Below, piece after piece: positions 6,105-53,869 of a stretch of 64,000 nt of DNA; positions within the stretch are counted from its first letter, which is position 1, and each line of letters begins with the position of its first letter. The stretch spans positions 211,366 through 275,365 of the forward strand of contig JAHRWA010000010.1 of NCBI GenBank assembly GCA_019090455.1. The letters run 5' to 3'. The notes under the pieces are model-generated. The model made no database searches. It was given only the letters and a program-made list of their open reading frames with translations, and was not told the origin of the DNA. A program made the position numbers and the translations under genes. The DNA comes from Pseudomonadales bacterium (GTDB taxonomy: Bacteria; Pseudomonadota; Gammaproteobacteria; Pseudomonadales; DC-out160).

Positions 6105-6127
6105 TATTCATTCTCCAGTGATCAATT

Positions 6128-31200: not shown

Positions 31201-31233
31201 TAAAAATAACATATCCTTAAAACTAAGGATATG
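31201..31233 (-). terminator. Probable Rho-independent terminator of the Hsp70-like operon
   Basis: Perfect 10-bp stem catatcctta-aaac-taaggatatg. On the minus strand it is followed by TTATTTTTAG. It lies 70 nt downstream of the 954-aa gene stop. Confidence 0.55.
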
Positions 31234-31302
31234 AAGGTTACAATTTTAGATTTTTTGGGTTTACGTATAGATACCTTAGTCGCATTCTTACTAGCCAAGG
31301 CA

Positions 31303-37679: not shown

Positions 37680-37746
37680 GTACGGCATACCAATTTGGTT
37701 AAAGCAGTATTCAAATTAAAACATGAAGAACAAGACAAGAACTTCT

Positions 37747-37781
37747 AACAAAACATCGGCTCTCATTTCTAAGAGCCGATG
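37747..37781 (-). terminator. Rho-independent terminator after the RCC1-repeat gene
   Basis: Perfect 10-bp stem catcggctct-catttcta-agagccgatg. On the minus strand it is followed by TTTTGTT. Confidence 0.6.
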
Positions 37782-37796
37782 AGAATACTAATTATT

Positions 37797-39078: not shown

Positions 39079-39963
39079 TTATAAAAAATCGACTTCAGGA
39101 CATAACACACCACCCAACTTCGGTTCGGTATCATTAATTTTAGCGGCAACACACTGCATCGTAACGATATTGTCAAAATTGACTACAGTAAGCTTCGATA
39201 TCGACTGCATCCTTACGGTCGCTACTCCCTGTACTGGAATTCTCGAATATTCAACTGCAGAGGGGCAACCCACCGCAGCACACTCTCCTAACAGATCACC
39301 TCTGGGGCGAGCTGAGATGGCCGATAATAATTCCCCCACTAGAGGTACTACTAATGGATAATTATAAAACAACTCGACCCTTAACAAATTCGCATCAGTC
39401 AACGTATCATTGCCAACGACTATTGCTCCTCTCTCCTGTAAAAAATTATTAGGTATACAAAGCACCCCCCCTACACATGGAACCGTAAGGTCGCGAAAGC
39501 GTATAAAAGACTCAAGATTCGGATTCACAATAATGACTTCAACCGGAATATTCGCAATATTACCAAGCTCGTAGTCTTGCCTATCGGCGTCACTTAAAAT
39601 TGGGCGCAACCCTTTAACAGCCGCTTCTTTCATTGCAACAAGATCAAGACCACTGACGGCACCTGCTCGCGCGGCCATGAGAGCAGCGTAATTCATTGTG
39701 TTTTTAGCTTCCCAGACATAACCCATCTGTACCGTTGCAAACCCCACTACCAGAAGCATTGGCGCAACTATCAGGGTCTCAGTCATGGACACTCCACGCT
39801 GACTACGCTTAGAACCCATCAACATCGTCGTCCTTCTATTAGGATTAAACGACTTTCTAGCAACAAAACTGAATGCCCGGAATAACCACACGGCCATACT
39901 TTTTATATTTTTTATACCTAGCTTACTCAATTGATTTAACTCGCGACACTGCTTGCTAATCAT
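39079..39963 (-). CDS. TadE-like pseudopilin / Flp pilus assembly protein
   Basis: 294 aa. Prepilin-like segment SQRG|VSMTETLIVAPMLLVVGFATVQ (G-x4-E followed by a hydrophobic helix). The true start may be internal to the track ORF. Confidence 0.6.
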   Translation of the reverse strand: MISKQCRELNQLSKLGIKNIKSMAVWLFRAFSFVARKSFNPNRRTTMLMGSKRSQRGVSMTETLIVAPMLLVVGFATVQMGYVWEAKNTMNYAALMAARAGAVSGLDLVAMKEAAVKGLRPILSDADRQDYELGNIANIPVEVIIVNPNLESFIRFRDLTVPCVGGVLCIPNNFLQERGAIVVGNDTLTDANLLRVELFYNYPLVVPLVGELLSAISARPRGDLLGECAAVGCPSAVEYSRIPVQGVATVRMQSISKLTVVNFDNIVTMQCVAAKINDTEPKLGGVLCPEVDFL

Positions 39964-39979
39964 AGGTTAGCTCCCTGTT

Positions 39980-40528
39980 CTATTTTTCTTCCCAATTATC
40001 TTGGAGTCTTTCGGCCAAACGCTCTAAGCTTGAGCTTTTATCATATCGAGATGTACCACCAGTAGAAAAGTGGTAAATATGGCCAAGCAGGTCTGATACT
40101 TTCGACACATCCGCGTCGGCATCAAGCATGGCCGTGTAAAACTTAAAGTGCTTTTCGGCTAACGCTAAATTTACCACGGCTAAATTATATTGCGCCATAT
40201 TATAACCAGGATCGCGCGCAAGCACCTTTTCATAGTAGCCTCTCGCAACTGGCAGTTTTTTTTGTCTATAGGCAATATTACCCAGCTTATACATTGCCGG
40301 GAGAGAGTTTTCATCAAGTGCCAAAGCTTTTTCAAAGGACTTAATAGCAGATGTCCAATCTTTTTCTAAATAGGCCTGCTGCCCCTGCATTAAGTAAGAT
40401 TTTACCGAATGTATTTCAATATTCTCTGGAGGCTTCAATGCTGTATTTTGGCAACCTAAGAGCCCTCCCACGGTTAAGTACAGCAGGAAAACTTTCACCG
40501 ACTTACCCATTACTGAGAGCCTACCCAT
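39980..40528 (-). CDS. TPR-repeat lipoprotein, TadD-like
   Basis: 182 aa. Lipobox LLGCQN and TPR repeats (AYLEKDWTSAIKSFEKALALDENS..., YYEKVLARDPGYNMAQYNLA). Its start abuts the stop of the upstream FHA gene. Confidence 0.7.
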   Translation of the reverse strand: MGRLSVMGKSVKVFLLYLTVGGLLGCQNTALKPPENIEIHSVKSYLMQGQQAYLEKDWTSAIKSFEKALALDENSLPAMYKLGNIAYRQKKLPVARGYYEKVLARDPGYNMAQYNLAVVNLALAEKHFKFYTAMLDADADVSKVSDLLGHIYHFSTGGTSRYDKSSSLERLAERLQDNWEEK

Positions 40529-42226
40529 TTAGTTAACGCTCCATTGGGTATACCACGCAATTTTTGAATTCGCTTTGGTATAATATTCAGTTCCCGGTGG
40601 AACCATATCGACCACCAATGCCCACGCATCGCGCGCCTTTTGAGAGTTTACATATTCTAAACGCAACCCCTTGCGATAAAGTTGCTTCGATCTTAACTCT
40701 ACATTAGATATAGCAACTCTCGCCTCAATACTATCGCCCACTTCAAGCGCTTTCTTCCACAAATAATAAGCTTTATGATGATCACCGTTTTTCTTAGCCG
40801 TGCTCGCCTTATCAACAAATTCTTGCATGACGCGACTTATAACCTCAATGGCATAAACACTTCGTTGATTCGCTATGAAAACTTTCTTTTCTTTATCAAG
40901 AAACACTGTCCACAGATCAAAACCATCCCTCTTGTTCCCTGCTCTAAAAGAGTCATTCCCTTTTTCATACGCGCCATACAACCCTTCCAGCTGACGTCTT
41001 TTTCTCACCAATTTAGAAATAGTTTTTTTAAATATTCCTTTAAAACTTTGAGCCTCTCGGAGCTCTTTGATAACTTGGGGAGCTTCTCCTCGCAAATATT
41101 TCTTATCGGCTAACGATAACAATTGATTCGCTTTATTCTCAGCGACATTTGAGTGAAAAGGCACTTCCTTTCCAGCAGATATTGACTTCGGAGGACTAAC
41201 TTTTTCAGGCGCTAGTGTTCGCGGGCTTACATCCGCAAAAATAGTTTGTACCGGGGTTATATTCTCTGGTGGGGGTAGATTTACTGCTGAAAGCGCTTCG
41301 TCTAACTCATTATCCACCAAAAAAGCATAGGCGATAGACTCGTCTAATTTATTAGCCAACGGCGCGGCAGCATCAGAGCCATTTGAATCTACGTGCGTGT
41401 CAGCAACTACCGTCTCTGCATTTGGAATATCTTTTTCTACTTCAACAGCGGTCGCTAATATATTTGAACCCTTCTCCATGCCCACCCAATACTGAAACCC
41501 ACTCCATGCGCAAGCGGCCATAAAAATACTGCCAATGATCAACCCTGCAAGTTTTAATTTTGGTTTACTGGCTTTCATGTTAAAAGAAAAGCTTTTATCG
41601 GTATCTGGCTTTTCTATCTCCGGCTCTGGCTTTTTACCTTTTGCACCCACATTAGAAAATTTAAGAGAGGCGTCACCAATCTTAATTTCATCGCCATCCT
41701 CCAGCAGAACACGTGCCACTTTATATCCGTTAACTCTAATTCCATTTAGACTTTCTAAATCATTAACGACAAACCGGCCTGACTGATAAATCAATTCCAC
41801 ATGGCGGCGAGAAATTCCACGACCTTCCAACACTAAATCACAGTCAGCTGCTCGACCGATGCTAAATGGGAATTGCTGGATTGGAAACCGGTTACCTTCA
41901 GAATCAACCAACACCACCTGTTCCATGTCGGACATATCAAAATCTGTGATGACTTCGGTGTGATCCTCCTGCCACAAAACTGCGTCAGGCACTTTATCTT
42001 CTAGAAGTGAATCAAAATTCGGTAACTCGTCATTGGATACTTCGTCATTGGATACATCGTCAACTGCATTTAATCCTGCGGTCTCGAAGTCTTGCGCGAC
42101 TTGAGTGTTTAATGGCTTTTCATTTAGATCACGGTCCTGAGCGGTTTGATTTGGATTGGGAGACTTACCTGACTGCTGACCAGCCACTGGTGTCGACTCT
42201 ACAACAAATTCTGCATTATCAAACAT
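40529..42226 (-). CDS. FHA-domain membrane protein with periplasmic helical/TPR-like C-terminal domain
   Basis: 565 aa with an acidic N-terminus. FHA core FPFSIGRAADCDLVLEGRGISRRHVELIYQSGRFVVNDLESLNGIRVNG. Single TM helix (LAGLIIGSIFMAACAWSGFQYWV). Confidence 0.8.
   Translation of the reverse strand: MFDNAEFVVESTPVAGQQSGKSPNPNQTAQDRDLNEKPLNTQVAQDFETAGLNAVDDVSNDEVSNDELPNFDSLLEDKVPDAVLWQEDHTEVITDFDMSDMEQVVLVDSEGNRFPIQQFPFSIGRAADCDLVLEGRGISRRHVELIYQSGRFVVNDLESLNGIRVNGYKVARVLLEDGDEIKIGDASLKFSNVGAKGKKPEPEIEKPDTDKSFSFNMKASKPKLKLAGLIIGSIFMAACAWSGFQYWVGMEKGSNILATAVEVEKDIPNAETVVADTHVDSNGSDAAAPLANKLDESIAYAFLVDNELDEALSAVNLPPPENITPVQTIFADVSPRTLAPEKVSPPKSISAGKEVPFHSNVAENKANQLLSLADKKYLRGEAPQVIKELREAQSFKGIFKKTISKLVRKRRQLEGLYGAYEKGNDSFRAGNKRDGFDLWTVFLDKEKKVFIANQRSVYAIEVISRVMQEFVDKASTAKKNGDHHKAYYLWKKALEVGDSIEARVAISNVELRSKQLYRKGLRLEYVNSQKARDAWALVVDMVPPGTEYYTKANSKIAWYTQWSVN
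42027..42056. repeat. 15-bp tandem duplication (2 units, 14/15 identical) inside the FHA-protein gene
   Basis: tcgtcattggatact / tcgtcattggataca, encoding the VSNDE-VSNDE repeat in the acidic N-terminus. Confidence 0.8.
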
Positions 42227-42480
42227 AACGAATACCGCGAAGCCTAAGCTTTCTCTTAATTATTTATATTCTTATTTAAATTATTATAATTCTGATTAGA
42301 TCGAGATCCTAAGGTATAACACTGCCTCCAAGCGGATGCTGACATAAGCTCTCGCAATTCTCGCGTTGAATAGGACAGAATCGTAGCCATGGTCACACAT
42401 CGCTAGGGATTATACAATTTCAATCATGTAAAGTTTGATATCATGCGTGGCACTACGTGGATACAGCGCTGGAGGCATTA

Positions 42481-42804
42481 CTATAGCTCGAGCCTATCCC
42501 CTATTTGCAGCCCGTAGTACTCCACTCCTCCGGTAGCGAACTCCAACACACTGACACATCCCTTGGGGGCAATTGCAAAATAAAATGGCACTATATTTGA
42601 TTTAAATCCGACTATCACGTTTTCGGAATCCAAGAAAACAACATCTATAGAAAACAACATGCCGACAGTATGTATACTAGAACAAGGCCTTAACCATAGC
42701 GCCTCCTCCATGGGTAAATTGAATCGACCCAATAGCCCTCTCAATCGAGACCACCAACTATGTGCAATGGTTATTGTAAGTGCCTCAAATGAAACTACAG
42801 CCAT
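42481..42804 (-). CDS. DUF192 family protein
   Basis: 107 aa. The pattern SWWSRLRGLLGR...EALWLRPCSSIHTVGMLFSIDVVFLD is typical of DUF192 (COG1430). Confidence 0.6.
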   Translation of the reverse strand: MAVVSFEALTITIAHSWWSRLRGLLGRFNLPMEEALWLRPCSSIHTVGMLFSIDVVFLDSENVIVGFKSNIVPFYFAIAPKGCVSVLEFATGGVEYYGLQIGDRLEL

Positions 42805-42832
42805 AAGCTCAGATCTCCCGCCAATTTACCTT

Positions 42833-43774
42833 CTAAAGCAGTCTAGTCAAAAAGTCAGGCAAAACACCTGCATCTTGTAACCCAACAATAATGACAAACC
42901 CCACTAACATAAATATCAGCGGAAACAGGAACATCATCAGCGGCCCCAGCAGTTTTATCGGTGCCTTACCCGCCGTTTCTTCCGCCCTTTGAAACCTTTC
43001 TGTTCTGCGTTGTTCTGCCTGCCCCTGTAAAACAGTGACTACCTCACCGCCCGTTTCCTCAGCTTGATTTAATGTAGAAACAAAATTTCGGATTCCGACA
43101 CTATCCATTCTTTCAGCCATTTCAATCAACGCTTCATGTCGAGGTTTACCTGCTCTTAACTCACGTTCTAATCGACTAAAATCATCCTTAATCGGACCTG
43201 GGCTCAAACACGCTATGGACTGAGATAGGGCATTCGAATAGTTCAATCCTGCCCTCATAGAAAGAATGATCAAGTCCAACAAAAATGGAAACTCTTTTTC
43301 AATGCGAGTATGACGGAATTTAACTCTATCACGCAGCCAAATATCGGGGTAAGCGAATCCGACAATAACACCCAACACCAATATGACGAGAACCATCGTC
43401 GTTAGTGGCGAAAAATACCAGTAGAATAGAGATGAAACAATTCCAGCCACAACTAAGCAGACGTACCGTAGAGTGACTAACTCCTCAGGAAGCAAAGAAT
43501 AAAACAGTCCAGCTGAGCTTAATTTCATTTGAATTTGATCATATTTTTCTTGTCCCATGTTAACTTTCACATCCGCACAGAACAATTTCACTACAGGTTT
43601 AAAAACCTTATAGATTAATGGTGGGGGATCTCGCCACTCATCAATAGAATGTGCTCGGGCCTCTAACAATCGAACAAACACGAAATACAAATAGATAACC
43701 AGCAACATGGCCGACAAACCAAATAGCATCGCTACTAGGTAAAGTTCGCTATCAATTGAGCCCGAATCAAACAT
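42833..43774 (-). CDS. tadC: Flp pilus assembly inner-membrane platform protein TadC (T2SS F-family)
   Basis: 313 aa. Has the GspF-like TM-cytoplasmic-TM layout. Overlaps tadB by 8 nt and lies downstream of the tadA-like ATPase. Confidence 0.8.
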   Translation of the reverse strand: MFDSGSIDSELYLVAMLFGLSAMLLVIYLYFVFVRLLEARAHSIDEWRDPPPLIYKVFKPVVKLFCADVKVNMGQEKYDQIQMKLSSAGLFYSLLPEELVTLRYVCLVVAGIVSSLFYWYFSPLTTMVLVILVLGVIVGFAYPDIWLRDRVKFRHTRIEKEFPFLLDLIILSMRAGLNYSNALSQSIACLSPGPIKDDFSRLERELRAGKPRHEALIEMAERMDSVGIRNFVSTLNQAEETGGEVVTVLQGQAEQRRTERFQRAEETAGKAPIKLLGPLMMFLFPLIFMLVGFVIIVGLQDAGVLPDFLTRLL

Positions 43775-44642
43775 CTACATTCACTATTTTATTTATTGCA
43801 TATACAGCCAAACACATCATCACAAACATAATACTCAACCAAATCCGCCCCAGCTCCGTAGTGAACAATTTAGCCATCGCCGCCGGTTCTACTACGAAAA
43901 AAACACCTCCGACAATTAACGGCAACCCAATGGCAACCACAGCTTGGGCGCGCCCCATTGAAGTTAACGCTTTAACCTTTCCTTGCGCCTCAGCCTTGGC
44001 CTTAAGGGTTTTCGCGAGCATCTCTAAAGTTTCAGAAAGATTACCGCCCACTTCTCGGGATATTCTAATCCCCGAATTCATGAGTATTAGCTCCTCCCGA
44101 TTAATACGTTTTGCCAAATCATTCAATGAATCATTCAACTCATGCCCGACTCTATACTCAACCAAAACTTGAGCAAACTCAGAAGCTATCGGATCGGGTT
44201 GATTTTTCGAAATTTGGTTCAAAGATTTAATAAGATTCAATCCCGCTCGCAAAGAAGCCGAAAAAGAGACCAACGTATCCGGCAACTGTGCGACAAACTC
44301 ATCTGATCGCCGCTCACGCATACTTTGAAAAAGTAATTTTGGAGCCGCCAAAGTCGCAATCAAAACCGCCAAAGCACCCCAAACGCCCATAAACATATAA
44401 ACAATGGGAACCAGCACCACAATTAACCCGAGACTAACAAGAAACACCTGACTTGGATCTAGATAAATCAGTACATCCCGAAACCCTTTATCGACGAGGG
44501 TAACAAAGTTATTTCGGTAGATTGCAAAAAACTCAATTCCAAACCGTATCAATAGCAAAAAGACGATACCAATGGAAATCCCCAGCATAGCGGTGCCAAT
44601 GGCCAATGAATACTCAAATACAAATACAACTAATTCATTCAT
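43767..44642 (-). CDS. tadB: Flp pilus assembly inner-membrane platform protein TadB (T2SS F-family)
   Basis: 291 aa. GspF-like domain (LPDTLVSFSASLRAGLNLIKSL...). Lies immediately downstream of the ATPase. Confidence 0.8.
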   Translation of the reverse strand: MNELVVFVFEYSLAIGTAMLGISIGIVFLLLIRFGIEFFAIYRNNFVTLVDKGFRDVLIYLDPSQVFLVSLGLIVVLVPIVYMFMGVWGALAVLIATLAAPKLLFQSMRERRSDEFVAQLPDTLVSFSASLRAGLNLIKSLNQISKNQPDPIASEFAQVLVEYRVGHELNDSLNDLAKRINREELILMNSGIRISREVGGNLSETLEMLAKTLKAKAEAQGKVKALTSMGRAQAVVAIGLPLIVGGVFFVVEPAAMAKLFTTELGRIWLSIMFVMMCLAVYAINKIVNVDV

Positions 44643-44658
44643 ATCGCCTCCTTCGAAA

Positions 44659-46335
44659 CTAGCGCAGCTCGCCTATATTGGAGTTCCTATCTGCATCATG
44701 AGACTTTTTAAAAATAGAAGTGTCTAGCTGAACACCAGAAGCTGCCATCTCTCGATAAAACAGAGGAATGTTCCCAGTCGCAACGAACTCCCCCAGTACT
44801 CGGCCATCGTCTCTAACCCCGGTTTTTACATACTCAAATATCGGTTCTATATAAACCTCATCGCCCTCCATTCCCTGCACTTCTACGATACTCGTAATCC
44901 TTCGTGCACCGTCACTAAGTCGTGTCTGTTGAATAATAATCTGGATCGCAGATCCAATTTGTTCACGAATGGCCTGTAAAGGCAAATCCATCCCCGCCAT
45001 AAAAACCATCACTTCTAGACGGGCTAACATATCTTTCGGCGAATTGGCATGACCTGTTGTTAATGACCCGTCGTGCCCTGTATTCATAGCTTGCAACATA
45101 TCGAGCGCTTCTCCCGCTCGACACTCTCCGATAATAATGCGGTCAGGCCTCATCCTTAATGAATTAACCACCAATTCGCGAATGCTTATTGCTCCCTTTC
45201 CTTCCGCGTTAGCCGCACGAGATTCCATCGACACCAGGTTCGGCTGATTGAGCTGTAGCTCAGCCGCATCTTCGATTGTGACTATACGTTCGTCGTTGCC
45301 AATAAAATTAGATAATATATTTAGAGTCGTGGTTTTACCGGAACCGGTGCCTCCCGATACAATGATATTTCGATGGGTTGAAACGCAATTTTGTAAGAAT
45401 AAAGCCATTTCAACACTGCAAGTGCCGTAATTCATTAGATCTTCTACATTCAGCTTTTTCTTTGAGAATTTTCTAATGGTAATACAGGGGCCCACTAATG
45501 AGAGAGGAGGGATGACAGCATTAACACGAGAACCATCAGGAAGCCGAGCATCCACCATTGGTGAACTTTCATCTATCCTTCTACCCAAAGGTGCAACGAT
45601 TCTATCAATGACCCCCATCAAAGCTTGAGTACTAGTAAACTGAGTGCTTGATAACGACAGCTTCCCATCTCGCTCTACATAAATTTGATTTGGCCCATTG
45701 ACCATAACCTCAGTCACTTCATCATCATTCAGCAGAGGCTCTAGAGCACCCAATCCCACAGCTTCAGCCACTACTTGTTCAACTAAATCATTTTTCGTTA
45801 TTCCCGCAGGAATCATTTCTATCTTTTCTTTAATGATATCGACAGTAGCCTTTGTCGCCTCCACCCTTAACTCTTCTGGTGACATTAGCTGCAAATTAGC
45901 TCTCTTGCGTAAATCTAAATATTCTAATATCAGAGTGTGTATTTTCTTTTTTAGCGCAATGAGTTCTTCACTTTCTCCATGCGCCGCAGCAACCAATTCT
46001 TTACTCTCAGGCTTTAATAATGAGCGTAGCGCTTGGCTTACTTCAATCACTCTCACCACTAGAGTGAGTTCACCAAATTGAAGCTCATCTCCGACGTTAA
46101 ATTGTATTGGCTGACTGATACGACGACCGTTAAACCAGGTGCCATTCGTACTCGAATTATCCTCCAGGGTGCAAACTGATATTTCTACTTGTATCGTGGC
46201 GTGATGACGGGAAATCAGCTCATCATCCAAAACTACATCACAGTCTTCACCTTTGCCTAGGGTGTAACGCCCTTGAACCAAAACAAAATTTTTCCGGTTA
46301 CCTTGGCTGTCAATAACATCAAATTCAAACTTCAT
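44659..46335 (-). CDS. tadA: FHA-domain-fused Tad/Flp secretion ATPase (CpaF/TadA family)
   Basis: 558 aa. N-terminal FHA domain (YTLGKGEDCDVVLDDELISRHHATIQ...NSSTNGTWFNGRRI). VirB11/CpaF ATPase core with Walker A GGTGSGKTT, Asp box IVTIEDAAEL, Walker B DRIIIGECRGAEA-like and His box TGHDGSLTTGHANS. Confidence 0.92.
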   Translation of the reverse strand: MKFEFDVIDSQGNRKNFVLVQGRYTLGKGEDCDVVLDDELISRHHATIQVEISVCTLEDNSSTNGTWFNGRRISQPIQFNVGDELQFGELTLVVRVIEVSQALRSLLKPESKELVAAAHGESEELIALKKKIHTLILEYLDLRKRANLQLMSPEELRVEATKATVDIIKEKIEMIPAGITKNDLVEQVVAEAVGLGALEPLLNDDEVTEVMVNGPNQIYVERDGKLSLSSTQFTSTQALMGVIDRIVAPLGRRIDESSPMVDARLPDGSRVNAVIPPLSLVGPCITIRKFSKKKLNVEDLMNYGTCSVEMALFLQNCVSTHRNIIVSGGTGSGKTTTLNILSNFIGNDERIVTIEDAAELQLNQPNLVSMESRAANAEGKGAISIRELVVNSLRMRPDRIIIGECRAGEALDMLQAMNTGHDGSLTTGHANSPKDMLARLEVMVFMAGMDLPLQAIREQIGSAIQIIIQQTRLSDGARRITSIVEVQGMEGDEVYIEPIFEYVKTGVRDDGRVLGEFVATGNIPLFYREMAASGVQLDTSIFKKSHDADRNSNIGELR

Positions 46336-46351
46336 AAGTTATAACCTTCGA

Positions 46352-47719
46352 CTAATCAAAGATATCAAATCTTGTTTCTTCCCCAGCTTCACTGTTCAGC
46401 GATTTTGCATAGTTCAGCATCGATCGATTACGATCAGATTCGGGATCCGTTAAATAAGGAGTGACAAATACCACTAATTCCGTTTGATTATTGATAAATT
46501 GGCGAGATTTAAATAACTCACCAATAATCGGGATAGAACTTAAACCGGGAACTTTTTCAACATTTTTACCGTCTTCAGATGTGAGCATTCCTGCTACAAC
46601 CATGGTTTGACCTGACAACATATTCATTTCTGTTTGTGCTCGGTTCACCACAAATCCAGGAATCTCACGCACCTCGACTGTTGAGTCGATTCGACTAATT
46701 TCCACCTCTAGCTTCACGACAATATAACCTTCCGGATCAGCTGTCGGTTGCATATTGAGTATGACACCGACCTGCTTGAAAATGACCGTAGCCCGCCCAT
46801 CGCTATCAATTGACGGGATTGGGATTTCCCCACCTCCAAGAAACTCAGCGCTGGAGCCACTTCTAGTAATTAACTTCGGTTCCGCGAGTACTTTCGCGAC
46901 ACCCGAATTCACCATTAAGTTTATTCGCGAACTAAGAACAGAAACAGGAGATTGCACTTTCCCATCAATTATATTGGAGGAACTTAAAAAATCCTCGGAG
47001 TGAAATCCAAAAAAGCTGGAGCCTTTATCAAAGTTACCCGCACCTCTGATATCACCCAGCACAGCAAAACTGGGTCCAATTGTTGAATCCTCCCAATTCA
47101 CACCAAACTCTTTTAAACCCGTTTTCCTCACTTCAAGTACCTTTACATCCAACATAATCATGGAACGTAGATTGACAGCAGGCCTTGCCACATTAAATAT
47201 TATTTTCCCGTCAGTAATCTCCTGACTAAATTTAGCTTTCATCTCCTCAATAATACCCATATCGAAGCTCCGTATCACTCGCCCTTCTACAAAGATAATA
47301 TTGTTATCCGCTCTCGCTTCCACACCCTCGACATCAGAAAGAATCGCCTTCGCTACGGTGAGAGTATCTCGCCAGGAATCATCAACTACCTTCAACAAAT
47401 ATCGGACCTCCGCTTGACCGTTGGTCCAAACTCGCAAATCGGTCACTCCTTCCTTGAGGCCCGTTAAAAGTACTTCATCGGGTGCCGTATTACGTACATT
47501 TGCAACATCTGGATGACCAATAGAAACTCTCGTTACACCCGGATAAGGAAGGATTTTAGTTTGCCCTTGTACGATAGTAATAGTTTTACGATACCCATCA
47601 GCAAAACAAACCTGACCACATAAAAAAATTAGAGACATGCAATATAAAGCAACACTCAAGGACCGAGTCAGATTGTTTCTCAGACTAATTAACAACAAGC
47701 TAGAATCAACGTATTTCAT
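46352..47719 (-). CDS. rcpA: Flp pilus secretin RcpA/CpaC
   Basis: 455 aa with a signal peptide. C-terminal secretin domain (VPGLSSIPIIGELFKSRQFINNQTELVVFVTPYL). Confidence 0.9.
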   Translation of the reverse strand: MKYVDSSLLLISLRNNLTRSLSVALYCMSLIFLCGQVCFADGYRKTITIVQGQTKILPYPGVTRVSIGHPDVANVRNTAPDEVLLTGLKEGVTDLRVWTNGQAEVRYLLKVVDDSWRDTLTVAKAILSDVEGVEARADNNIIFVEGRVIRSFDMGIIEEMKAKFSQEITDGKIIFNVARPAVNLRSMIMLDVKVLEVRKTGLKEFGVNWEDSTIGPSFAVLGDIRGAGNFDKGSSFFGFHSEDFLSSSNIIDGKVQSPVSVLSSRINLMVNSGVAKVLAEPKLITRSGSSAEFLGGGEIPIPSIDSDGRATVIFKQVGVILNMQPTADPEGYIVVKLEVEISRIDSTVEVREIPGFVVNRAQTEMNMLSGQTMVVAGMLTSEDGKNVEKVPGLSSIPIIGELFKSRQFINNQTELVVFVTPYLTDPESDRNRSMLNYAKSLNSEAGEETRFDIFD

Positions 47720-48516
47720 TATGACTTACCACCAGCAATGATCTCAAAACCAAAACGACGCTCAATATCAGGTTCCATCATAATTTCCTGCTTAATTTCC
47801 ACTAAGTTATCAATCGTGATGTAGTTACCCTCCACACTATCTTCACCTATCTGATCTGATCGTAATAAAATCCGTATTTCTCCTAGCGCCTGAGCGTGAA
47901 CCAACCGAGTGGCATCTGTCAGAGTAAGCCCGACCGTAATTTCCTTAAACATTCTTTCGTTTTTCCTTATTCGATCATTGATTCTTTCCCCCGCCGCCAG
48001 GACTTTAACCCGAGTCAAAAGTGGCACCGTTCTTTCTCTATCGCCATCCGCAACCGTCACTAATACATCAATAAAGTTTCCGGGCTCGAGAAAGCCCGAT
48101 ATGGCATCCAAAGTGCTCACGTCAATGGTAATCGCTCGCTGCCCATCTTCCAGTAGACTGGCAAACCCACTATATTGGCCTTTTGAAATATGAGAGCGTA
48201 ACAAGGCATCACCGGCCTTTAATGGATTTATGATTTGAGCCCCCGCAATTAAGCTATAACCTGAAGGTGCAAAAACATCTGACTGAACAAACTGCTTTGG
48301 TACCTTGCGTGCTTTCACTGTATCTTTGGAAACAAAATCTCCTACTTTTAAATCTTTTTTCGCGACAATGACGGCTATCATCTGCTGTCCGGCATTGAGA
48401 GCGTCTTTATGAGTCTTTACACTGCGATCAATATAACTACCCGCTAGCATCCAGCCAACACCACCGGTCAAGATCGCACCGATCAGCAATATTATTGTTA
48501 ATCTATTTGATTTCAT
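47719..48516 (-). CDS. cpaB: Flp pilus assembly protein CpaB/RcpC
   Basis: 265 aa. N-terminal TM anchor, SAF-like segment (VIVAKKDLKVGDFVSKDTV) and RcpC-like C-terminus. Its stop overlaps the secretin start. Confidence 0.85.
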   Translation of the reverse strand: MKSNRLTIILLIGAILTGGVGWMLAGSYIDRSVKTHKDALNAGQQMIAVIVAKKDLKVGDFVSKDTVKARKVPKQFVQSDVFAPSGYSLIAGAQIINPLKAGDALLRSHISKGQYSGFASLLEDGQRAITIDVSTLDAISGFLEPGNFIDVLVTVADGDRERTVPLLTRVKVLAAGERINDRIRKNERMFKEITVGLTLTDATRLVHAQALGEIRILLRSDQIGEDSVEGNYITIDNLVEIKQEIMMEPDIERRFGFEIIAGGKS

Positions 48517-48616
48517 TGTTATTGCCGCTCAAAAATGGAAATGAATACAATGCCTAAAACTCAACTATCCAAGTCAGCCTGGGGAAGAGATCAGAAGTAG
48601 TTAAATTGATAAAAGT

Positions 48617-48862
48617 TCAGGGTGCCATCATATTATCTTTGAAGTTCTTTTCATGAATATTGATAGCTTCAACGACGCTGGTTTTATTGATATTATCAGT
48701 TGCACTGATGCCTGACTCACCTTCTAACATCGTTCGGTGAATATCATTATCACTTGCTGCTAACATGGCAATACCCGCCGATCCAGCCAACAATCCCAGC
48801 ATGACAACTAGGTGCTCAACCATCATCTGCCCTGCATGATTTTTTTTATTTTTATATTTCAT
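48617..48862 (-). CDS. Possible second Flp-type prepilin (divergent)
   Basis: 81 aa. NHAG|QMMVEHLVVMLGLLAGSAGIAML fits the Flp processing motif G|xxxxE(Y), with His replacing Tyr, followed by a hydrophobic helix. Confidence 0.45.
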   Translation of the reverse strand: MKYKNKKNHAGQMMVEHLVVMLGLLAGSAGIAMLAASDNDIHRTMLEGESGISATDNINKTSVVEAINIHEKNFKDNMMAP

Positions 48863-48892
48863 TTTTTTCTTATCATTTAGTTACGAGAATCG

Positions 48893-49654
48893 TTATTGCT
48901 TATTCATCCAATTGACCAAAATTTCCGTTTCCCTTTTATTGCTTGCCTGCGGGAAAAATGTAATTTGGATGTGCTCCGCTCTTCTTTGGTATTGAATTTG
49001 TCTATAATGCACTCTTACGCTTGAATTTTCTATAGGTGCTATCGATAACGCCCAACCATCGCTCTGTAATTGATTTTCTACATAATATGTTGCTGAATTC
49101 ACAGAACGCCGTGATGCGATTGTGAGAGTTTCGGATCGGCGCCCTTGATCCAAATATTCCATCTTCTTCATTAGCCTGCTATTCGGTGGCATTGGAAAAT
49201 CAGTTTTCTGTTTCCGTGTGTTCTCTGAATTGGGTATTTCCGACACCGTGAGTCTACCAATCACTACCTTGCCATCCTTATGAAACTGTACGGAATAATA
49301 ATAACCATTCAATTCATACCCCAGAATTGTATCAAACCCCAAACGCTGCTCTGTTGTTTTTCCGTGTCCTTTTGTTTTCCATCGAGAGCGATAAAATTGT
49401 TTTACGGAGTCTTCCGATCCTAAGAACTTGAATTCTTTGATACTCATAGGCAACCCATTTATCGCCATTGTTTCAGCGATCCACTGGGAAGTAGCGCCAG
49501 GGATTACATCAAGCGAGGGCAAAGATCTATTGAGTGGGTCGGAGGAAGCCAGTACCGATGTAGTACTGGCTAGGGTACAAAATAGGATTTGCAGGAGGAG
49601 TATTGCAACTCTTAAAAAAAATTTTTTACCTTTATTAATGATACTTCGCACCAT
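48893..49654 (-). CDS. Hypothetical periplasmic protein within the Tad locus
   Basis: I chose the internal ATG at 49654 (MVRSIINKGKKFFLRVAILLLQILFCTLASTTSVLASS, a signal peptide). The track's longer ORF to 49723 overlaps the upstream gene by 32 nt. No named domain. Confidence 0.5.
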   Translation of the reverse strand: MVRSIINKGKKFFLRVAILLLQILFCTLASTTSVLASSDPLNRSLPSLDVIPGATSQWIAETMAINGLPMSIKEFKFLGSEDSVKQFYRSRWKTKGHGKTTEQRLGFDTILGYELNGYYYSVQFHKDGKVVIGRLTVSEIPNSENTRKQKTDFPMPPNSRLMKKMEYLDQGRRSETLTIASRRSVNSATYYVENQLQSDGWALSIAPIENSSVRVHYRQIQYQRRAEHIQITFFPQASNKRETEILVNWMNKQ

Positions 49655-49691
49655 TCTACAACCGGCATTTAATCTACAAAATATAATTTCT

Positions 49692-50588
49692 TTAGTTAGG
49701 CACCAGTTCTGACAGATCTTCATTCGTCATATTATAATCACCAGCAGCAGCACTTCCTAACTCAGGCATAAGATAATCGAATACATCTTCGTATGCTGGA
49801 TCATCTCGAACAATGAGGCCCGACTCAACACCTTTCAGAATTGAAACGTCACTTGGAATATCTCCAATGACAGGAATATAACCAGTCATTGGAGTAATAT
49901 CGTCAAGAGTTTCATTATCCAATGGCACCGCTCCGCTAACACGCTGACGAAGCTGTTCCTCGTCTAAAGGAGTCCAATTATCCGTTATTATCCCCCCTCT
50001 TGACCTCAAATTAGCAACAGGAGTCGTGTAATGGTTATCCGAATGCCAACCCTTACCATTTGAGAGATTACTATTTCCAATACGAATCAAACGAGCTTGA
50101 TAGCTTAGATTAGATTCTACATACCCCACACCCGACTCTTCGAGATTTAACATACTGTTATGTTGAGTCATCCAATCCGCCGCATTGCTAATATCGGGAG
50201 CTGGAGCCGGCTGATAGTTTGAGTCTCGGGTTAATCCGGAGCTTGCTTCCGTACCCGCATAAAGAGCCAACTCCTCTCCATCGGCAACAAAAAAAGGGTG
50301 ACTGGCATTCCACAATGGATTTATTTTATCGATGATCACCGACATTCCGTTGAGCGGATCTTTATAAAACCTCGATCTTATTTCAGATTCAGGAACTGCC
50401 TGCCGACCAACTACGCGCTCCCATGACACATACCGACTCACTTGATGCACACTATTTTGCATATCAAAAATCGCAGATAGTCCTTGCATCATAATGACCA
50501 TCCCCACAAGAATAAAGCAAGCGGTTAATACAAACTCAGTCATAGCTTGACCTCGCTGCCTAATCCCACCCTCTCCACTAATTCTCAT
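49692..50588 (-). CDS. TadE-like pseudopilin
   Basis: 298 aa. The N-terminus RQRG|QAMTEFVLTACFILVGMVIMM matches the TadE/Flp-type prepilin motif (G|xxxxEF plus a hydrophobic helix). Confidence 0.7.
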   Translation of the reverse strand: MRISGEGGIRQRGQAMTEFVLTACFILVGMVIMMQGLSAIFDMQNSVHQVSRYVSWERVVGRQAVPESEIRSRFYKDPLNGMSVIIDKINPLWNASHPFFVADGEELALYAGTEASSGLTRDSNYQPAPAPDISNAADWMTQHNSMLNLEESGVGYVESNLSYQARLIRIGNSNLSNGKGWHSDNHYTTPVANLRSRGGIITDNWTPLDEEQLRQRVSGAVPLDNETLDDITPMTGYIPVIGDIPSDVSILKGVESGLIVRDDPAYEDVFDYLMPELGSAAAGDYNMTNEDLSELVPN

Positions 50589-50611
50589 ATGAACACTCGC
50601 CTATTCGCAAT

Positions 50612-52003: not shown

Positions 52004-52132
52004 GCCTCCTCCTGCTTATTGTTGTCTAGCCGAGCTTAAAGAAGAAGGTTTCAGGCTTACTCTGTATTTTTTGCCTCGCCACTGGGCAGCGAACTTCCAT
52101 CACGATACTTTACATATTAAATAGAGTATTCG

Positions 52133-52176
52133 AAAAAGCAGTAGGTATAGCGGATAATTTCGCTATACCTACTTGC
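52133..52176 (-). terminator. Hairpin/attenuator immediately downstream of flp
   Basis: Arms gcagtaggtatagcg / cgctatacctac(t)tgc with an 8-nt loop. On the minus strand the hairpin is followed by TTTTTCG. It lies between the flp stop (52190) and the tadG-like start (52003). Confidence 0.6.
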
Positions 52177-52189
52177 CAAACTACATAAT

Positions 52190-52423
52190 CTACTGAAGTA
52201 CCATGGTATTAGACGGGCTAGGAGCAGCGACTGTAGTGGTTGTAGCACCAATAGTAGTACCACCTAGAAGATTTGCGGCGTTTGCCGTTTGTTCTTCAAC
52301 AACGGTTCCGAATGCGCCGAATACCACAATAGCAGAAATCGCGATAACGCCAACCATGATTAGGTACTCGGACATGCCTTGACCACGTTGGGCTTGAGAA
52401 GAGATTAATTTAGATATTTTCAC
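52190..52423 (-). CDS. flp: Flp family type IVb pilin
   Basis: 77 aa, GTG start with a GGGG Shine-Dalgarno sequence. AQRG|QGMSEYLIMVGVIAISAIVVFGAF is the Flp motif G|xxxxEY plus a hydrophobic helix. The C-terminal tail is Thr-rich. Confidence 0.85.
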   Translation of the reverse strand: MKISKLISSQAQRGQGMSEYLIMVGVIAISAIVVFGAFGTVVEEQTANAANLLGGTTIGATTTTVAAPSPSNTMVLQ

Positions 52424-52871
52424 AGGTAGACCCCTTTATTATTTTATTTCGATTTTTATATATTTTTTATTCGCTGCCCCACTCGGATCAGCTAATGAAT
52501 TTATATCACGATCTTTTAGCTAATTCCATACTTTTGATTAACTATTTCCATCAATCGTTGATATGGGAGGATTCAAAGAAAGTAAGCGCACATAATACCT
52601 ATAATAGCGAGTTTGGAAAGTTTGAAATCAAATAATTTACAATAATATACAGTATTCTTCCAGCATGGACCCAAAAGATATCCGGCGTATGCTAATCAGC
52701 TAATCAGAAGAACACCTTGATTCAAAACTAGGGAAAGACAAATGGAGCCAAGACTCTCTTATTGACTCGTGGCATACTTGATTTAGTCATTTACGGCATA
52801 CCATATTGACGTACGGCGTTTTATTTTACCTCTAACATGAAGGTTTATTCCTTAAATTTACGCATCAAAAC

Positions 52872-53828
52872 ATGAAATTATCTCGTTATTTTAAAAAAAA
52901 ATCGGGCAATCTACACTCGCTGACTACAGAGCAAAACGAAGGCAGTAACCTGGAAACTGAAGCAACCACCTCGACCAAAAATTCAATTGAAGAAACAATT
53001 CTGCCCACCTTGCTTGAACTTAATAACGTGCAATATACTCTAAAGCCCTTTAAGAAGGGCGGGATATGTGACATTTATAAAGGACTCCCCAATACAAAAG
53101 ATCTCCCCACCATTGCAGTAAAAATGATTAGAAAGGAATGGTACACTAACAGCAGAGTTAGAAGGCAGTTCAGCACCGAGTCTCAAATTGTACGAGATCT
53201 TCGGCAGGAACATCTCCCCCGTTATATTTCCAGAGGACTGCTCTCCGGTAAACCCTACTTTGCCTATGAATATATCGAAGGGTTTCGTTTAATTAACTTA
53301 TCCCAAAAGAGAGACATTTTCCCGCCAGAACTCGTGAAAGACATTGCCTTAGACATAATTTGCCAGTTATTACGCTCTCTTCACTATATGCATACTAAAT
53401 TGAATCCCATTGCCCACGGAGACATCAGCTCCGAAAATATTATTTTCGATGACTGGCACAATATCCATCTAATCGATTTCGGGTGTGCGCATTATCTAAA
53501 ACTGGCCGACAACAATGCCTATCAATGGGTAGGCAAGCCCTCGTTTATATCGCCAGAACAAGCAAAGGGAGAGCCTTGGGATCATCGTAGCGACATCTAC
53601 CAAGCAGGTATTTTGTATTATGAGCTAGCAACTGGCGCACGCTGGAATACGGGTACGAATCCTCGAAATAAAACGCTTTTTGCTGCTTCAGCTGAACCCC
53701 CAAGACCTGATTTTCTCGCAAAAGAAGCGGGAATAAATATATCAACATCAATAGCCAAAATGCTTCACCCTCAACCTCAATTACGCTATCAATCTGCCAA
53801 TAACGCATTAAAGGACCTTGAAAAATAG
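52872..53828 (+). CDS. Soluble Hanks-type Ser/Thr protein kinase
   Basis: 318 aa. IAVKMI (VAIK-like Lys), catalytic loop HGDISSENIIF, LIDFG (DFG) and FISPEQ (APE). No TM segment. Divergent from flp. Confidence 0.85.
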   Translation: MKLSRYFKKKSGNLHSLTTEQNEGSNLETEATTSTKNSIEETILPTLLELNNVQYTLKPFKKGGICDIYKGLPNTKDLPTIAVKMIRKEWYTNSRVRRQFSTESQIVRDLRQEHLPRYISRGLLSGKPYFAYEYIEGFRLINLSQKRDIFPPELVKDIALDIICQLLRSLHYMHTKLNPIAHGDISSENIIFDDWHNIHLIDFGCAHYLKLADNNAYQWVGKPSFISPEQAKGEPWDHRSDIYQAGILYYELATGARWNTGTNPRNKTLFAASAEPPRPDFLAKEAGINISTSIAKMLHPQPQLRYQSANNALKDLEK

Positions 53829-53869
53829 CGCCCTATAATGGTTATTTACTATTAAATTAAGCGCACTCC

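Follow-up and report, generated by a model that had tools for sequence, protein, structure and literature searches.

The window analysed here, a 64,000-nucleotide stretch from the genome of a marine gammaproteobacterium (Pseudomonadales, DC-out160), carries a Tad/Flp locus at positions 39079-53828, in which ORF calls and Pfam and NCBIfam matches place the kinase gene on the plus strand and all the other named locus genes on the minus strand (Table 1). The gene list of the first-pass annotation, running from flp to a TadD-like TPR lipoprotein, agrees with these matches; a DUF192 gene and a 276-aa ORF for a signal-peptide protein are additions to it. As in the canonical Tad systems of Aggregatibacter (tad), Caulobacter (cpa) and Pseudomonas aeruginosa (flp-tad-rcp), a single operon encodes a Flp prepilin, TadE/F-like pseudopilins, a TadG-like protein, CpaB/RcpC, an RcpA/CpaC secretin, a TadA/CpaF ATPase, TadB, TadC and a TadD-like TPR lipoprotein. 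The locus differs from those systems in having neither TadZ/CpaE nor TadV/CpaA, in the fusion of the ATPase to an FHA domain, and in the addition of DUF192, a periplasmic protein, an FHA membrane protein and a kinase, together with a PP2C phosphatase in relatives. We consider that it probably encodes the whole of a Tad/Flp (type IVc) pilus machine, one that belongs to a distinct subtype without TadZ or TadV in the locus.

Table 1. Genes and other features of the Tad/Flp locus and its immediate surroundings.
Feature	Position	Strand	Evidence and remarks
TadE pseudopilin, RG/VSMTET	39079..39825	-	PF07811 E 4e-9; ORF to 39963
TPR gene/tadE junction, ~150 nt left	39826..39979		Site of a ~220-aa PP2C gene in every other complete relative
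TPR lipoprotein (TadD-like), 182 aa	39980..40528	-	TPR_16 E 1e-13; lipobox LLGC read directly
Predicted bitopic FHA membrane protein, 565 aa	40529..42226	-	Pfam FHA, residues 122-184, E 2e-18
DUF192 protein	42481..42804	-	PF02643 E 8e-16
TadC platform protein	42833..43774	-	T2SSF E 2e-16
TadB platform protein	43767..44642	-	T2SSF E 6.5e-15
FHA-fused TadA/CpaF ATPase, 558 aa, class III architecture	44659..46335	-	Pfam, NCBIfam
RcpA/CpaC-type secretin	46352..47719	-	PF00263 E 2.5e-36; PF13629 E 1e-11
CpaB/RcpC	47719..48516	-	PF16976 E 3e-21
Small pilin-like protein, 81 aa, AG/QMMVEH	48617..48862	-	Read directly; small ORF at the equivalent position in relatives
Conserved signal-peptide (periplasmic) protein	48893..49657	-	276-aa ORF to 49723; likely start 49657
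Pseudopilin-like protein, 298 aa, RG/QAMTEF	49692..50588	-	Motif read directly; homologues in relatives
TadG-like protein, 463 aa	50612..52003	-	PF13400 E 6e-7; position conserved in relatives
Hairpin, 13-bp stem and T-run, terminator- or attenuator-like	52140..52173	-	Just 3' of flp
Flp-type major prepilin, 77 aa, RG/QGMSEY	52190..52423	-	Read directly; relatives' homologues at the equivalent position
Divergent flp/kinase intergenic region, 448 nt	52424..52871		Coordinates; presumed promoters
Soluble Hanks-type Ser/Thr kinase, 318 aa, non-RD	52872..53828	+	Pkinase E 7e-26
MORN-repeat lipoprotein	53870..54853	-	MORN E 2e-70

Exactly four proteins carry the G/xxxxE prepilin motif on direct reading (flp, the 298-aa protein, the 81-aa protein and TadE), where at least four had been claimed. 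Both flp and the 298-aa protein, the first of two that had been called TadE-like, are present and are identified by this motif and a hydrophobic segment; neither has a Pfam match. Comparison with relatives and the sequence itself make 39825 the likely start of TadE. The DUF192 gene occurs in 19 of the 19 family loci that cover its position and in 4 of 44 control Tad loci, and is a conserved accessory gene of the TadZ-less FHA-ATPase Tad subtype.

The absence of tadV and tadZ, proposed earlier for this locus, is confirmed and proves to be a trait of the whole locus family rather than of the window alone. TadZ turned up in 41 of the 44 control Tad loci; the family loci, about 29 in number, all lack it. 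In the window, a Pfam scan that covered about 50 of the 56 larger ORFs gave no match to Peptidase_A24, ParA/CbiA/AAA_31 or PP2C; the six or so outside the scan are two in the sdh/suc region (945 aa, 21117-23954; 591 aa, 24850-26625) and four short ones (88-123 aa) that either lie close to a window end or overlap a larger ORF. A search with profiles seeded from genuine TadZ and TadV sequences matched only a stand-alone receiver domain at 1403-1774. Prepilin cleavage would thus fall to a peptidase encoded outside the locus. A relative in Moraxella bovis has the core machine without the kinase module and without TadZ, so the loss of TadZ is not explained by the kinase module alone.

The N-terminal FHA domain of the ATPase (PF00498, residues 24-88, E 6e-20) stands as first annotated, ahead of a T2SSE domain (PF00437, residues 193-470, E 4e-62) in a protein that matches TIGR03819 TadA (E 2e-97). 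Across 18 orthologues its FHA residues G27, K28, S42, H45, S62, T63, N64 and G65 do not vary; the Gly-Lys pair replaces the Gly-Arg of canonical phosphothreonine-binding FHA domains. The same order of N-terminal FHA, variable linker and CpaF core characterises "class III" CpaF (FHA-IDR-3HB-NTD-CAD), described mostly from betaproteobacteria, e.g. Achromobacter xylosoxidans E3HIW0 (PMC12019362). The window's family differs in being gammaproteobacterial (Ketobacteraceae and related Pseudomonadales). That report classifies architecture only, and its passages on FHA are silent on kinase, phosphatase and gene context (PMC12019362).

The second FHA protein of the operon, also recognised at first pass, is predicted from Pfam, alignment and an AF2 model to comprise a disordered N-terminus, an FHA domain (104-189), a transmembrane helix (222-250, a hydrophobic helix in the AF2 model), a Pro-rich linker and a TPR-like region (359-563). 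A Lys-rich stretch N-terminal to the helix suggests that the N-terminus is cytoplasmic and the all-helical TPR-like domain periplasmic. The C-terminal domain is common to 116 representatives at 50% identity. The FHA domain has the canonical phosphothreonine-binding set (GR...SRRH...SLNG) and, among solved structures, is closest to GarA/OdhI (Foldseek and PDB matches, 35-39% identity). Two threonines in the tail, Thr12 (ESTPV) and Thr90 (TEV[Y/I/L]), are invariant in 25 sequences; their motifs are still recognisable in the distant loci L049, L050, L051 and L057 and are patchy among more distant family members. We take the Thr-x-Val-aromatic motif in a disordered tail upstream of the FHA domain to resemble the ETTSVF phospho-sites of GarA/OdhI. 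In Actinobacteria, GarA and OdhI act as small soluble regulators of metabolism; here the FHA module would instead face the cytoplasm as the head of a bitopic membrane protein encoded in a pilus operon, and the spacing from threonine to FHA is about 20 residues as against about 40.

A soluble Hanks-type kinase transcribed divergently from flp is present, as the first-pass annotation held (Pkinase score 91.5 bits, cut-off 31.7), with StkP and PknB as its closest solved structures. Its catalytic motifs, described as intact, are so only in part: the VAVK Lys, alpha-C Glu, DFG and SPE are in place, but the catalytic loop reads HGDISSEN, with HGD for HRD (non-RD) and Ser for the catalytic-loop Lys, and kinase activity is for this reason not certain. 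These substitutions, with a degenerate glycine-rich loop (GGICD), would fit an inactive pseudokinase serving only as scaffold or adaptor. We regard this as highly improbable, given that conservation across 68 members of the kinase family reaches at least 95% for HGDISSEN, DFG, SPE, the VAVK Lys and the catalytic Asp and Asn, the alpha-C Glu being conserved at a level below 95%, and that all relatives have a dedicated PP2C alongside the kinase, for which there would be no use unless something is phosphorylated.

The locus type recurs in at least 14 lineages, counted at <90% ATPase identity, among Ketobacter, HdN1 and marine Pseudomonadales MAGs, and the kinase is found in every family locus that covers its position, in all checkable lineages. 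Its adjacency to flp is conserved across relatives: most loci have the two genes side by side in divergent orientation. In L050 and L057 the kinase instead sits at the opposite end of the operon, where it follows tadE in convergent orientation. Two loci stand among unrelated neighbours, L049 between lgt/thyA/folA and amoC/ICL, and L050 between glnD/truA and gltX. A reduced module in L051 keeps the kinase, the FHA-ATPase, the FHA membrane protein and a TPR protein together; pilin, secretin, TadB and TadC homologues were not detected within about 10 kb on each side. The kinase family comprises about 70 clusters, 41-72% identical, with a sharp drop beyond; the longest contigs of 21 kinase clusters are equal in size to those of ATPase clusters, an indirect sign of co-residence. 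Kinase and ATPase pairwise identities co-vary (Spearman 0.83, 105 pairs), a correlation that shared phylogeny would also yield. Most loci with the kinase beside flp share the broader synteny AcrB-MORN-kinase, so part of the conservation reflects vertical inheritance.

In relatives, the operon also contains a PP2C gene, between the TPR gene and tadE, in every one of the 14 further distinct loci whose sequence extends that far (L049 (=L066), L050, L054, L057, L059, L061-64, L070, L071, L104, L106 (HdN1) and L107 (Ketobacter sp.)). The earlier statement that the window has no PP2C holds. A tblastn search of the whole window with a relative's PP2C revealed no remnant (best E 0.34), and the PP2C-less junction recurs in independent assemblies. 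The gene has been cleanly and recently lost in the DC-out160 genome, and its absence is not a feature of the Tad subtype. The kinase and FHA proteins of this genome nevertheless look intact, so the module may work differently there.

The divergent flp and kinase genes share their intergenic region, and no substrate of the kinase is known; its target could therefore be gene expression, for example a transcription factor acting in this region. Sigma-70-like matches there are weak and no more frequent than expected by chance. We consider such a role very unlikely: Pfam finds no transcription factor encoded in the locus, in L050 and L057 the kinase lies away from the flp promoter region, and two FHA readers are built into components of the machine itself.

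Comparative genomics supports a phospho-signalling reading, and we think it fairly likely that an operon-encoded Thr-phosphorylation switch controls the Tad pilus motor. FHA domains bind phosphothreonine. They can also be phospho-independent structural modules, as in SctD/YscD of the T3SS inner ring, and here they might simply scaffold the ATPase and inner-membrane complex while the kinase regulates something else. Consistent with that, PF16697 (the cytoplasmic domain of YscD) is a second match for both FHA domains, Lys replaces the canonical Arg in the ATPase FHA, and the M. bovis ATPase keeps a degenerate FHA with no kinase in the 25.6-kb stretch around the locus, indicating a kinase-independent role there. 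In this one kinase-less relative compared, however, it is precisely the phosphate-contact residues that are lost (S42 to A, S62-T63 to G-A). The membrane protein, moreover, has the full canonical binding set and is most like GarA/OdhI; at least 14 lineages keep kinase and PP2C within the operon or next to it, in two positions and with differing flanks; and L051 retains the kinase and both FHA proteins without the rest of the machine. On balance, a purely structural role is unlikely.

For the switch we infer a control module made up of the kinase, the bitopic FHA membrane protein, the TPR lipoprotein (whose gene is always next after that of the membrane protein in relatives) and, in relatives, the PP2C. 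The kinase would phosphorylate a conserved threonine in the tail of the membrane protein, most likely Thr12, Thr90 or both, to be read by the ATPase FHA, the membrane protein's own GarA-like FHA, or both. Reading of the phosphothreonine would then control either how the CpaF hexamer docks at the TadB/TadC platform or its activity there, and PP2C would reset the switch. In other Tad systems TadZ is implicated in positioning or localising the machinery, and we assume that ATPase docking at the platform is also its task. Candidate inputs for the signal are the periplasmic TPR-like domain and associated lipoproteins. In the DC-out160 genome, loss of PP2C would bias the switch to the phosphorylated state or make it reliant on an unlinked phosphatase.

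The first-pass proposal of a switch like PpkA/Fha1 gains support in that the kinase travels with the FHA-Tad locus and relatives add an in-operon PP2C, completing a kinase/phosphatase/FHA set like the PpkA-PppA-Fha1 set of the T6SS. The Thr phosphorylation pathway of the P. aeruginosa H1-T6SS consists of the PpkA kinase, the PppA PP2C phosphatase and Fha1, with a PpkA-TssL-Fha variant in Agrobacterium. In both cases the gene cluster for an envelope-spanning nanomachine includes its own Hanks kinase, PP2C and FHA reader, and periplasmic and lipoprotein accessory components could act upstream. The Tad machine is not known to have homology to the T6SS beyond shared domains. Its kinase is soluble and lacks a sensor domain in the membrane or periplasm; of its two FHA readers, one forms part of the motor ATPase and the other of a membrane protein; and PP2C is missing in the DC-out160 genome.

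The Kil system of Myxococcus xanthus likewise combines an FHA-fused CpaF-type ATPase (KilF) with further FHA-domain proteins, and its authors proposed a T6SS-like phosphorylation cascade (PMC8460266). TadZ is not mentioned in that paper and "kinase" is absent from its main text, so that no kinase or phosphatase is reported there for the Kil clusters. Kil genes are spread over two clusters rather than a single operon; Kil has its own prepilin peptidase (KilA), a secretin without an N0 domain and neither TadG nor TadD (PMC8460266), whereas the window locus has TadG-like and TadD-like proteins and a kinase, with PP2C in relatives. Since Kil assembles on prey contact (PMC8460266) and the M. bovis plasmid version of the subtype has RHS-core toxin genes and the gene for a giant DUF2235 protein on its flanks, the machine could be, rather than chiefly an adhesive pilus, a Tad-derived device for contact-triggered killing or protein delivery, with the kinase/FHA module as contact sensor. 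This would be compatible with a phospho-switch, because it concerns output rather than regulation. We judge it distinctly unlikely: in the window the pilin set is full, with flp, three pseudopilins and the TadG-like protein, and is joined by the TadD-like lipoprotein absent from Kil (PMC8460266), and Pfam detects no family of toxins or effectors beside the locus in the window or at the HdN1 and Ketobacter sp. MCCC 1A13808 loci.

The FHA-CpaF class III architecture (PMC12019362) and the FHA-rich Myxococcus Kil system with its T6SS-like phosphorylation analogy (PMC8460266) are already published; our literature search gave no description of a kinase/PP2C/FHA module encoded within a Tad operon. 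The set present in relatives thus points to an undescribed phospho-switch on the Tad pilus motor.

The MORN lipoprotein, a possible accessory component, is encoded next to the kinase in L003, L046, L048, L054, L059, L062-64, L070, L071 and L104 and is fused to the TPR lipoprotein in L049. The signal-peptide protein has no match in Pfam or the PDB; it has orthologues in all family loci, and one lies two genes from a kinase homologue on a Methylococcales contig without Tad genes.

The Tad locus forms one long minus-strand gene array with a single divergent plus-strand gene (39079-54853), and Pfam and NCBIfam scans, together with direct reading of motifs, identified every gene that the first-pass annotation had named there, so that its observation of the locus was correct, although its gene list had left out DUF192 and the signal-peptide protein p276. 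The features that mark a Tad/Flp system are found together: a TadA/CpaF ATPase, TadB and TadC, a secretin with CpaB/RcpC, and Flp with TadE/F-type pseudopilins. Besides Flp, direct reading finds three proteins with the G|xxxxE motif and the Pfam scan places PF07811 in one of them; the pilin-like genes proposed earlier are thus present, two of them being recognised by the motif only. A 13-bp hairpin with a T-run lies directly 3' of flp, as expected after a major pilin gene, and is the one element that stands out in a promoter scan of the locus, where matches otherwise did not exceed chance.

Genes and gene products of the Tad locus and its divergent kinase gene
Product	Position	Strand	Features
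flp-like prepilin	52190-52423	-	77 aa, RG|QGMSEY motif; no Pfam match
TadG-like protein	50612-52003	-	PF13400
Pseudopilin-like protein, 298 aa	49692-50588	-	Motif RG|QAMTEF
p276, 276 aa, signal peptide	48893-49723	-	
Pilin-like protein, 81 aa	48617-48862	-	Motif AG|QMMVEH
CpaB/RcpC	47719-48516	-	PF16976
Secretin, 455 aa	46352-47719	-	PF00263 and N-terminal PF13629
FHA-ATPase, 558 aa	44659-46335	-	FHA N-terminal, T2SSE E 4e-62
TadB	43767-44642	-	PF00482 E 6.5e-15
TadC	42833-43774	-	PF00482 E 2e-16
DUF192	42481-42804	-	Pfam/NCBIfam scans
FHA membrane protein, 565 aa	40529-42226	-	Pfam/NCBIfam scans
TPR lipoprotein (TadD-like)	39980-40528	-	
TadE	39079-39963	-	PF07811; motif RG|VSMTET
Kinase, 318 aa, Pkinase domain	52872-53828	+	448-nt gap to flp, transcribed away from flp

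Beyond this region the window is typical chromosomal sequence with sdh, suc, gltA, htpG and an RND pump, and G+C is uniform; the kinase and the ATPase match proteins from a Pseudomonadales MAG at 100% identity. The Pfam scan took in about 50 of the 56 larger ORFs; the roughly six others are four of 88-123 aa, which lie close to an end of the window or overlap a larger ORF, and those of 945 aa (21117-23954) and 591 aa (24850-26625) in the sdh/suc region. Neither Pfam nor PDB gave a match to the p276 protein, not even when a 13-sequence profile was used, and its single-sequence model is of too low confidence to use (pLDDT 46.6).

The ATPase has TIGR03819 (TadA) as its best NCBIfam match (E 2e-97; 326.5 bits, below the model cut-off of 373) and, by direct reading, a GGTGSGKTT Walker A motif. 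Its FHA domain (residues 24-88, with Gly-Lys in place of Gly-Arg) is joined by a linker reaching to about residue 125 to a T2SSE domain at 193-470, the layout defined as 'class III' CpaF in PMC12019362. The matches listed in a search with the full ATPase were close orthologues (58-71% identity), with no betaproteobacterial class III protein or KilF among them, and tblastn of plasmids with the ATPase N-terminus for further FHA-CpaF loci returned Moraxella bovis only. Two JGI proteins, P0117 and P0118 (802 and 881 aa), score like close ATPase orthologues while carrying no FHA Pfam domain and having no BLAST identity reported; either fusion or tandem ATPase domains may account for them.

The reported lack of tadV and tadZ in the locus was confirmed and extends to the whole family of Tad loci with an FHA-fused ATPase. 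Iterated profile searches, seeded with TadZ (receiver plus AAA_31/ParA) and TadV (Peptidase_A24) from two Firmicutes Tad loci, detected TadZ in none of about 29 family loci as against 41 of 44 other Tad loci, these controls being mostly monoderm and matching in the ATPase core only; TadV was found in 5 of the 44 and in no family locus. The controls are the remainder of a genome-collection scan with a single ATPase, in which just one locus, L003, belonged to the family. No Peptidase_A24 or ParA/CbiA/AAA_31 domain was found among the Pfam-scanned ORFs of the window. Both genes are missing from all family loci, which makes their absence a feature of the subtype as a whole; with the secretin and ATPase genes directly adjoining in the family, no room is left for tadZ, and prepilin cleavage must come from elsewhere. 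PilD cleaves the Flp of Bdellovibrio according to a recent preprint (bioRxiv 10.64898/2026.07.08.737194). A stand-alone receiver at 1403-1774 was ruled out as a TadZ remnant, being 123 aa long, without a ParA domain and 37 kb away.

DUF192 also distinguishes the subtype, with a gene in all 19 family loci that cover the position as against 4 of the 44 controls; we found no literature linking DUF192 to pili. The four controls that carry it (COG1430; L001, L002, L004 and L012, from Firmicutes and Chloroflexi) have ATPases among those most similar to the window's.

The divergent gene encodes a protein with a Pkinase match of 91.5 bits against a cut-off of 31.7. Aligned to StkP, it has the VAVK Lys, the Glu, the catalytic-loop Asp and Asn, DFG and SPE, and conservation in its family reaches at least 95% for all of these but the Glu, which is conserved to a lower level. 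The earlier description of its catalytic motifs as intact therefore holds for these residues but not for the loop, which reads HGDISSEN rather than the canonical HRDxKxxN, with Arg replaced by Gly and Lys by Ser, and which is invariant in 68 members. A pseudokinase could account for such a loop, although it explains less well the phosphatase gene in the operon of relatives and the two positions of the kinase gene described below. The kinase has no hydrophobic segment; its N-terminus begins with a conserved MxLxxLFxWRxKK segment followed by a variable tail. Its family is sharply bounded, with about 70 clusters of 41-72% identity and 305-350 aa, beyond which come one Methylococcales member at 37% and then only generic kinases below 32%.

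We examined gene context in public assemblies holding kinase and ATPase homologues and in 20 metagenome loci recovered with an ATPase N-terminus profile, at least 14 separate lineages at <90% ATPase identity in all. A kinase gene is present in every locus that covers its position, mostly divergent from flp, so that the kinase link to the Tad locus proposed by the first-pass annotation is conserved across lineages and its interpretation withstands the refuting condition that it had set, a kinase-flp adjacency confined to this locus or otherwise not conserved. Many of the flp-adjacent loci also keep the MORN lipoprotein and the RND pump, and conservation there could therefore be plain synteny. 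Three arrangements go beyond synteny. In one related locus, L049, the kinase adjoins flp although the flanking genes are completely different; in L050 and L057 there is no kinase beside flp, and it lies instead at the far end, convergent after tadE and among other flanks; and in L051 a kinase 41% identical to the window's forms a module with an FHA-ATPase, an 889-aa FHA membrane protein and a TPR protein, with no pilin, secretin, TadB or TadC homologue detected within the roughly 10 kb fetched on each side. The alternative that the FHA domains are structural and the kinase unrelated to the machine accounts less well for the two kinase positions and for the phosphatase gene, and the same is true of a kinase that acts on the locus at the transcriptional level, an alternative that its usual place beside flp brings to mind.

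The identities of kinase and ATPase co-vary between loci (Spearman 0.83 over 105 locus pairs), as shared phylogeny alone could also produce, and for 21 kinase clusters the longest contig equals in size that of an ATPase cluster; both observations are consistent with long co-residence of the two genes. The L051 module (GCA_028281605.1 JANQJO010000097.1, 3620-10987), whose FHA-ATPase has 686 aa, runs directly into an ABC transporter pair and is flanked on its other side by genes for a caspase-like peptidase, a trypsin-like protease and an amidase. The only family member found outside a Tad context is the 37% identical kinase of L047, a Methylococcales contig (ENA ERZ27250242; 203-898, 3281-4198), where it lies two genes from a p276 homologue (33% identity, E 9e-39) with an Lnt-like N-acyltransferase gene in between; this pairing suggests a kinase-p276 partnership independent of Tad.

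In each of the 14 other distinct loci extending as far as the distal end, a PP2C phosphatase gene of about 220 aa lies between the TPR gene and tadE, and the family thus encodes a full kinase, phosphatase and FHA set. These loci include the cultured strain HdN1, Ketobacter sp. MCCC 1A13808 and L104, the nearest relative (ATPase 71% identical). The window has only about 150 nt at this junction; tblastn of its 64 kb with a relative's PP2C gave no remnant or relocated copy (best E 0.34), and no PP2C was seen among the ORFs covered by Pfam. The earlier statement that PP2C is missing is accordingly right for the window, but its relatives carry the gene within the operon. Misassembly was ruled out as the cause of the gap, because independent assemblies from other samples agree at the PP2C-less junction. 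This genome is a recent phosphatase-loss variant. The kinase and FHA proteins of the window are free of signs of decay, the kinase deviating at 4 of 102 conserved columns, conservatively in each case.

A candidate target of the kinase is the second FHA protein. In an AF2 model built from a 25-sequence alignment, a disordered N-terminus (1-100) is followed by an FHA domain (104-189), a transmembrane helix (222-250), a Pro-rich disordered linker and an all-helical region at 359-563 with pLDDT >90 and weak TPR-like matches. Lys-rich residues N-terminal of the helix imply that the FHA domain is probably cytoplasmic in this model. The domain has the canonical GR...SRRH...SLNG residues, and GarA/OdhI are its closest solved structures at 35-39% identity. 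Two motifs in the disordered tail, F-x-V-E-S-T12-P-V and W-D-x-D-x-T90-E-V-[Y/I/L], are invariant in the 25 sequences and recognisable in the distant proteins of L049, L050, L051 and L057. The second has the pT-x-x-hydrophobic form preferred by many FHA domains, and it resembles the ETTSVF switch site of GarA/OdhI, a likeness we regard as a lead. Conserved Thr residues in the ATPase linker, TadB and TadC were confined to core-domain positions, none being specific to the family, which leaves those of the FHA membrane protein as the candidate phospho-sites. The periplasmic domain is shared by at least 116 representatives at 50% identity in an exhaustive profile search and so marks a large uncharacterised family, in whose distant members the Thr motifs are patchy, as judged in 108 representatives by a strict regular expression that is not quantitative.

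The M. bovis locus (plasmid NZ_CP087831) provides a kinase-less comparison. It keeps the core gene order from flp to DUF192, together with tadE, and its FHA-ATPase is 48% identical to the window's; annotation and homology search of the 25.6-kb stretch found no kinase, PP2C, FHA membrane protein, TPR gene or TadZ. In its ATPase FHA domain, S42 is replaced by A and the Ser-Thr of the STNG loop by G-A, at positions invariant in 18 kinase-linked orthologues. If the FHA domain reads phosphothreonine only in the presence of a kinase, this is the pattern one would predict, here in a single example. The locus (L105; NZ_CP087831.1, 61963-87609) lies on a 130-kb plasmid and is bordered by genes for two RHS-core toxins, a lytic transglycosylase and a 1784-aa DUF2235 protein, which may hint at a toxin-delivery role of the Tad subtype in M. 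bovis.

We consider it most likely that the Tad pilus machine of this family is under a threonine-phosphorylation switch. From the observed gene association and residue conservation we infer each biochemical step: the soluble kinase would phosphorylate the tail of the FHA membrane protein; the mark would be read by the CpaF FHA domain, or by the membrane protein's own FHA domain as a GarA-like latch; its reading would control engagement of the motor with TadB/TadC; and PP2C would reset the switch. Signals might enter through the periplasmic TPR-like domain, the TPR and MORN lipoproteins or the conserved periplasmic p276. The MORN lipoprotein (53870-54853), next to the kinase and kept in most family loci, is fused to the TPR protein in L049 (15844-16716), which suggests that the MORN and TadD-like TPR lipoproteins act together in the envelope. 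More tentatively, and on balance doubtfully, phosphothreonine-gated docking may have taken the place of TadZ: kinase and PP2C would write and erase marks at Thr12/Thr90 for the CpaF FHA domain to read, the motor would engage its platform only upon a periplasmic or surface signal passed through the TPR-like domain and the lipoproteins, the membrane protein's own FHA domain would serve as a GarA-like self-inhibitory latch, and the present genome would be a 'locked' phosphatase-loss variant. If so, a post-translational on/off switch would be defined for a Tad motor for the first time.

The PpkA/PppA/Fha1 pathway of the P. aeruginosa H1-T6SS would, by analogy, be the closest functional counterpart, although the locus is not a member of it. 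PpkA-type pathways use a transmembrane kinase with a periplasmic sensor domain, whereas the window kinase is soluble; the machine is different, and no T6SS genes were found in the window by Pfam. The window retains the kinase and two FHA proteins of such a trio but not PP2C, and all three are present in the 14 related loci.

By its description, the Kil system of Myxococcus (PMC8460266) is similar in having an FHA-fused ATPase (KilF) and several FHA proteins, which makes a Kil-like killing device a further alternative. Kil, as described there, has split clusters, its own peptidase KilA, no TadG or TadD and a short secretin without N0, whereas the window has a single operon, TadG-like and TadD-like genes, no peptidase and a secretin with N-terminal PF13629; a killing device also explains the in-operon PP2C and the two kinase positions less well than a phosphorylation switch does. 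The Kil authors proposed a T6SS-like cascade, and the word 'kinase' is absent from their main text (PMC8460266). Class III FHA-CpaF is mostly betaproteobacterial, with no function or context given in the passages of PMC12019362 on FHA. The FHA-CpaF and the idea of a T6SS-like cascade were thus anticipated in outline, and the family described here makes that idea directly testable. To this, comparison between genomes contributes the phosphatase absent from the window, the lack of TadZ throughout the family, candidate phospho-sites, a relative without the kinase as control, and cultured hosts. A full-text literature search, partial in its coverage, returned no paper on a kinase/PP2C/FHA module in Tad loci.

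Post-translational switching of Tad pili on and off is poorly understood, and what the FHA domain does on class III CpaF and on KilF is still open in the two papers found to mention it, PMC12019362 and PMC8460266. In this family one operon holds a putative writer (the kinase), an eraser (PP2C), two readers (the FHA proteins) and candidate phospho-sites, and it occurs in the cultured Ketobacter alkanivorans, Ketobacter sp. MCCC 1A13808 and strain HdN1. The bacteria that carry it are marine hydrocarbon degraders and plastic colonisers, to which control over surface attachment is important. TadZ appears dispensable in this family, and a whole Tad lineage without TadZ and without a locus-encoded prepilin peptidase also has a bearing on the criteria by which genome surveys recognise Tad systems.

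Elsewhere in the window, about 10 kb (29223-38702) separates tadE from citrate synthase, where HdN1 and Ketobacter sp. (L106 and L107) have one dehydrogenase gene; this extra segment encodes an S8 peptidase with DUF11, an HSP70-like trio, a DUF2846 protein and an RCC1-repeat lipoprotein. The trio (31303-36625) comprises three adjacent minus-strand genes, for HSP70-like (954 aa, with DUF3731), HSP70/MreB-like (613 aa) and DUF2760 proteins, and looks like a conserved, uncharacterised DnaK-related set. Near the start of the window, several small ORFs without Pfam matches (3152-4875) precede a region (4896-6739) in which a 203-aa Imm11-family immunity protein adjoins a 402-aa protein with a weak CHAT-domain match, and which could be a toxin-immunity or defence islet.
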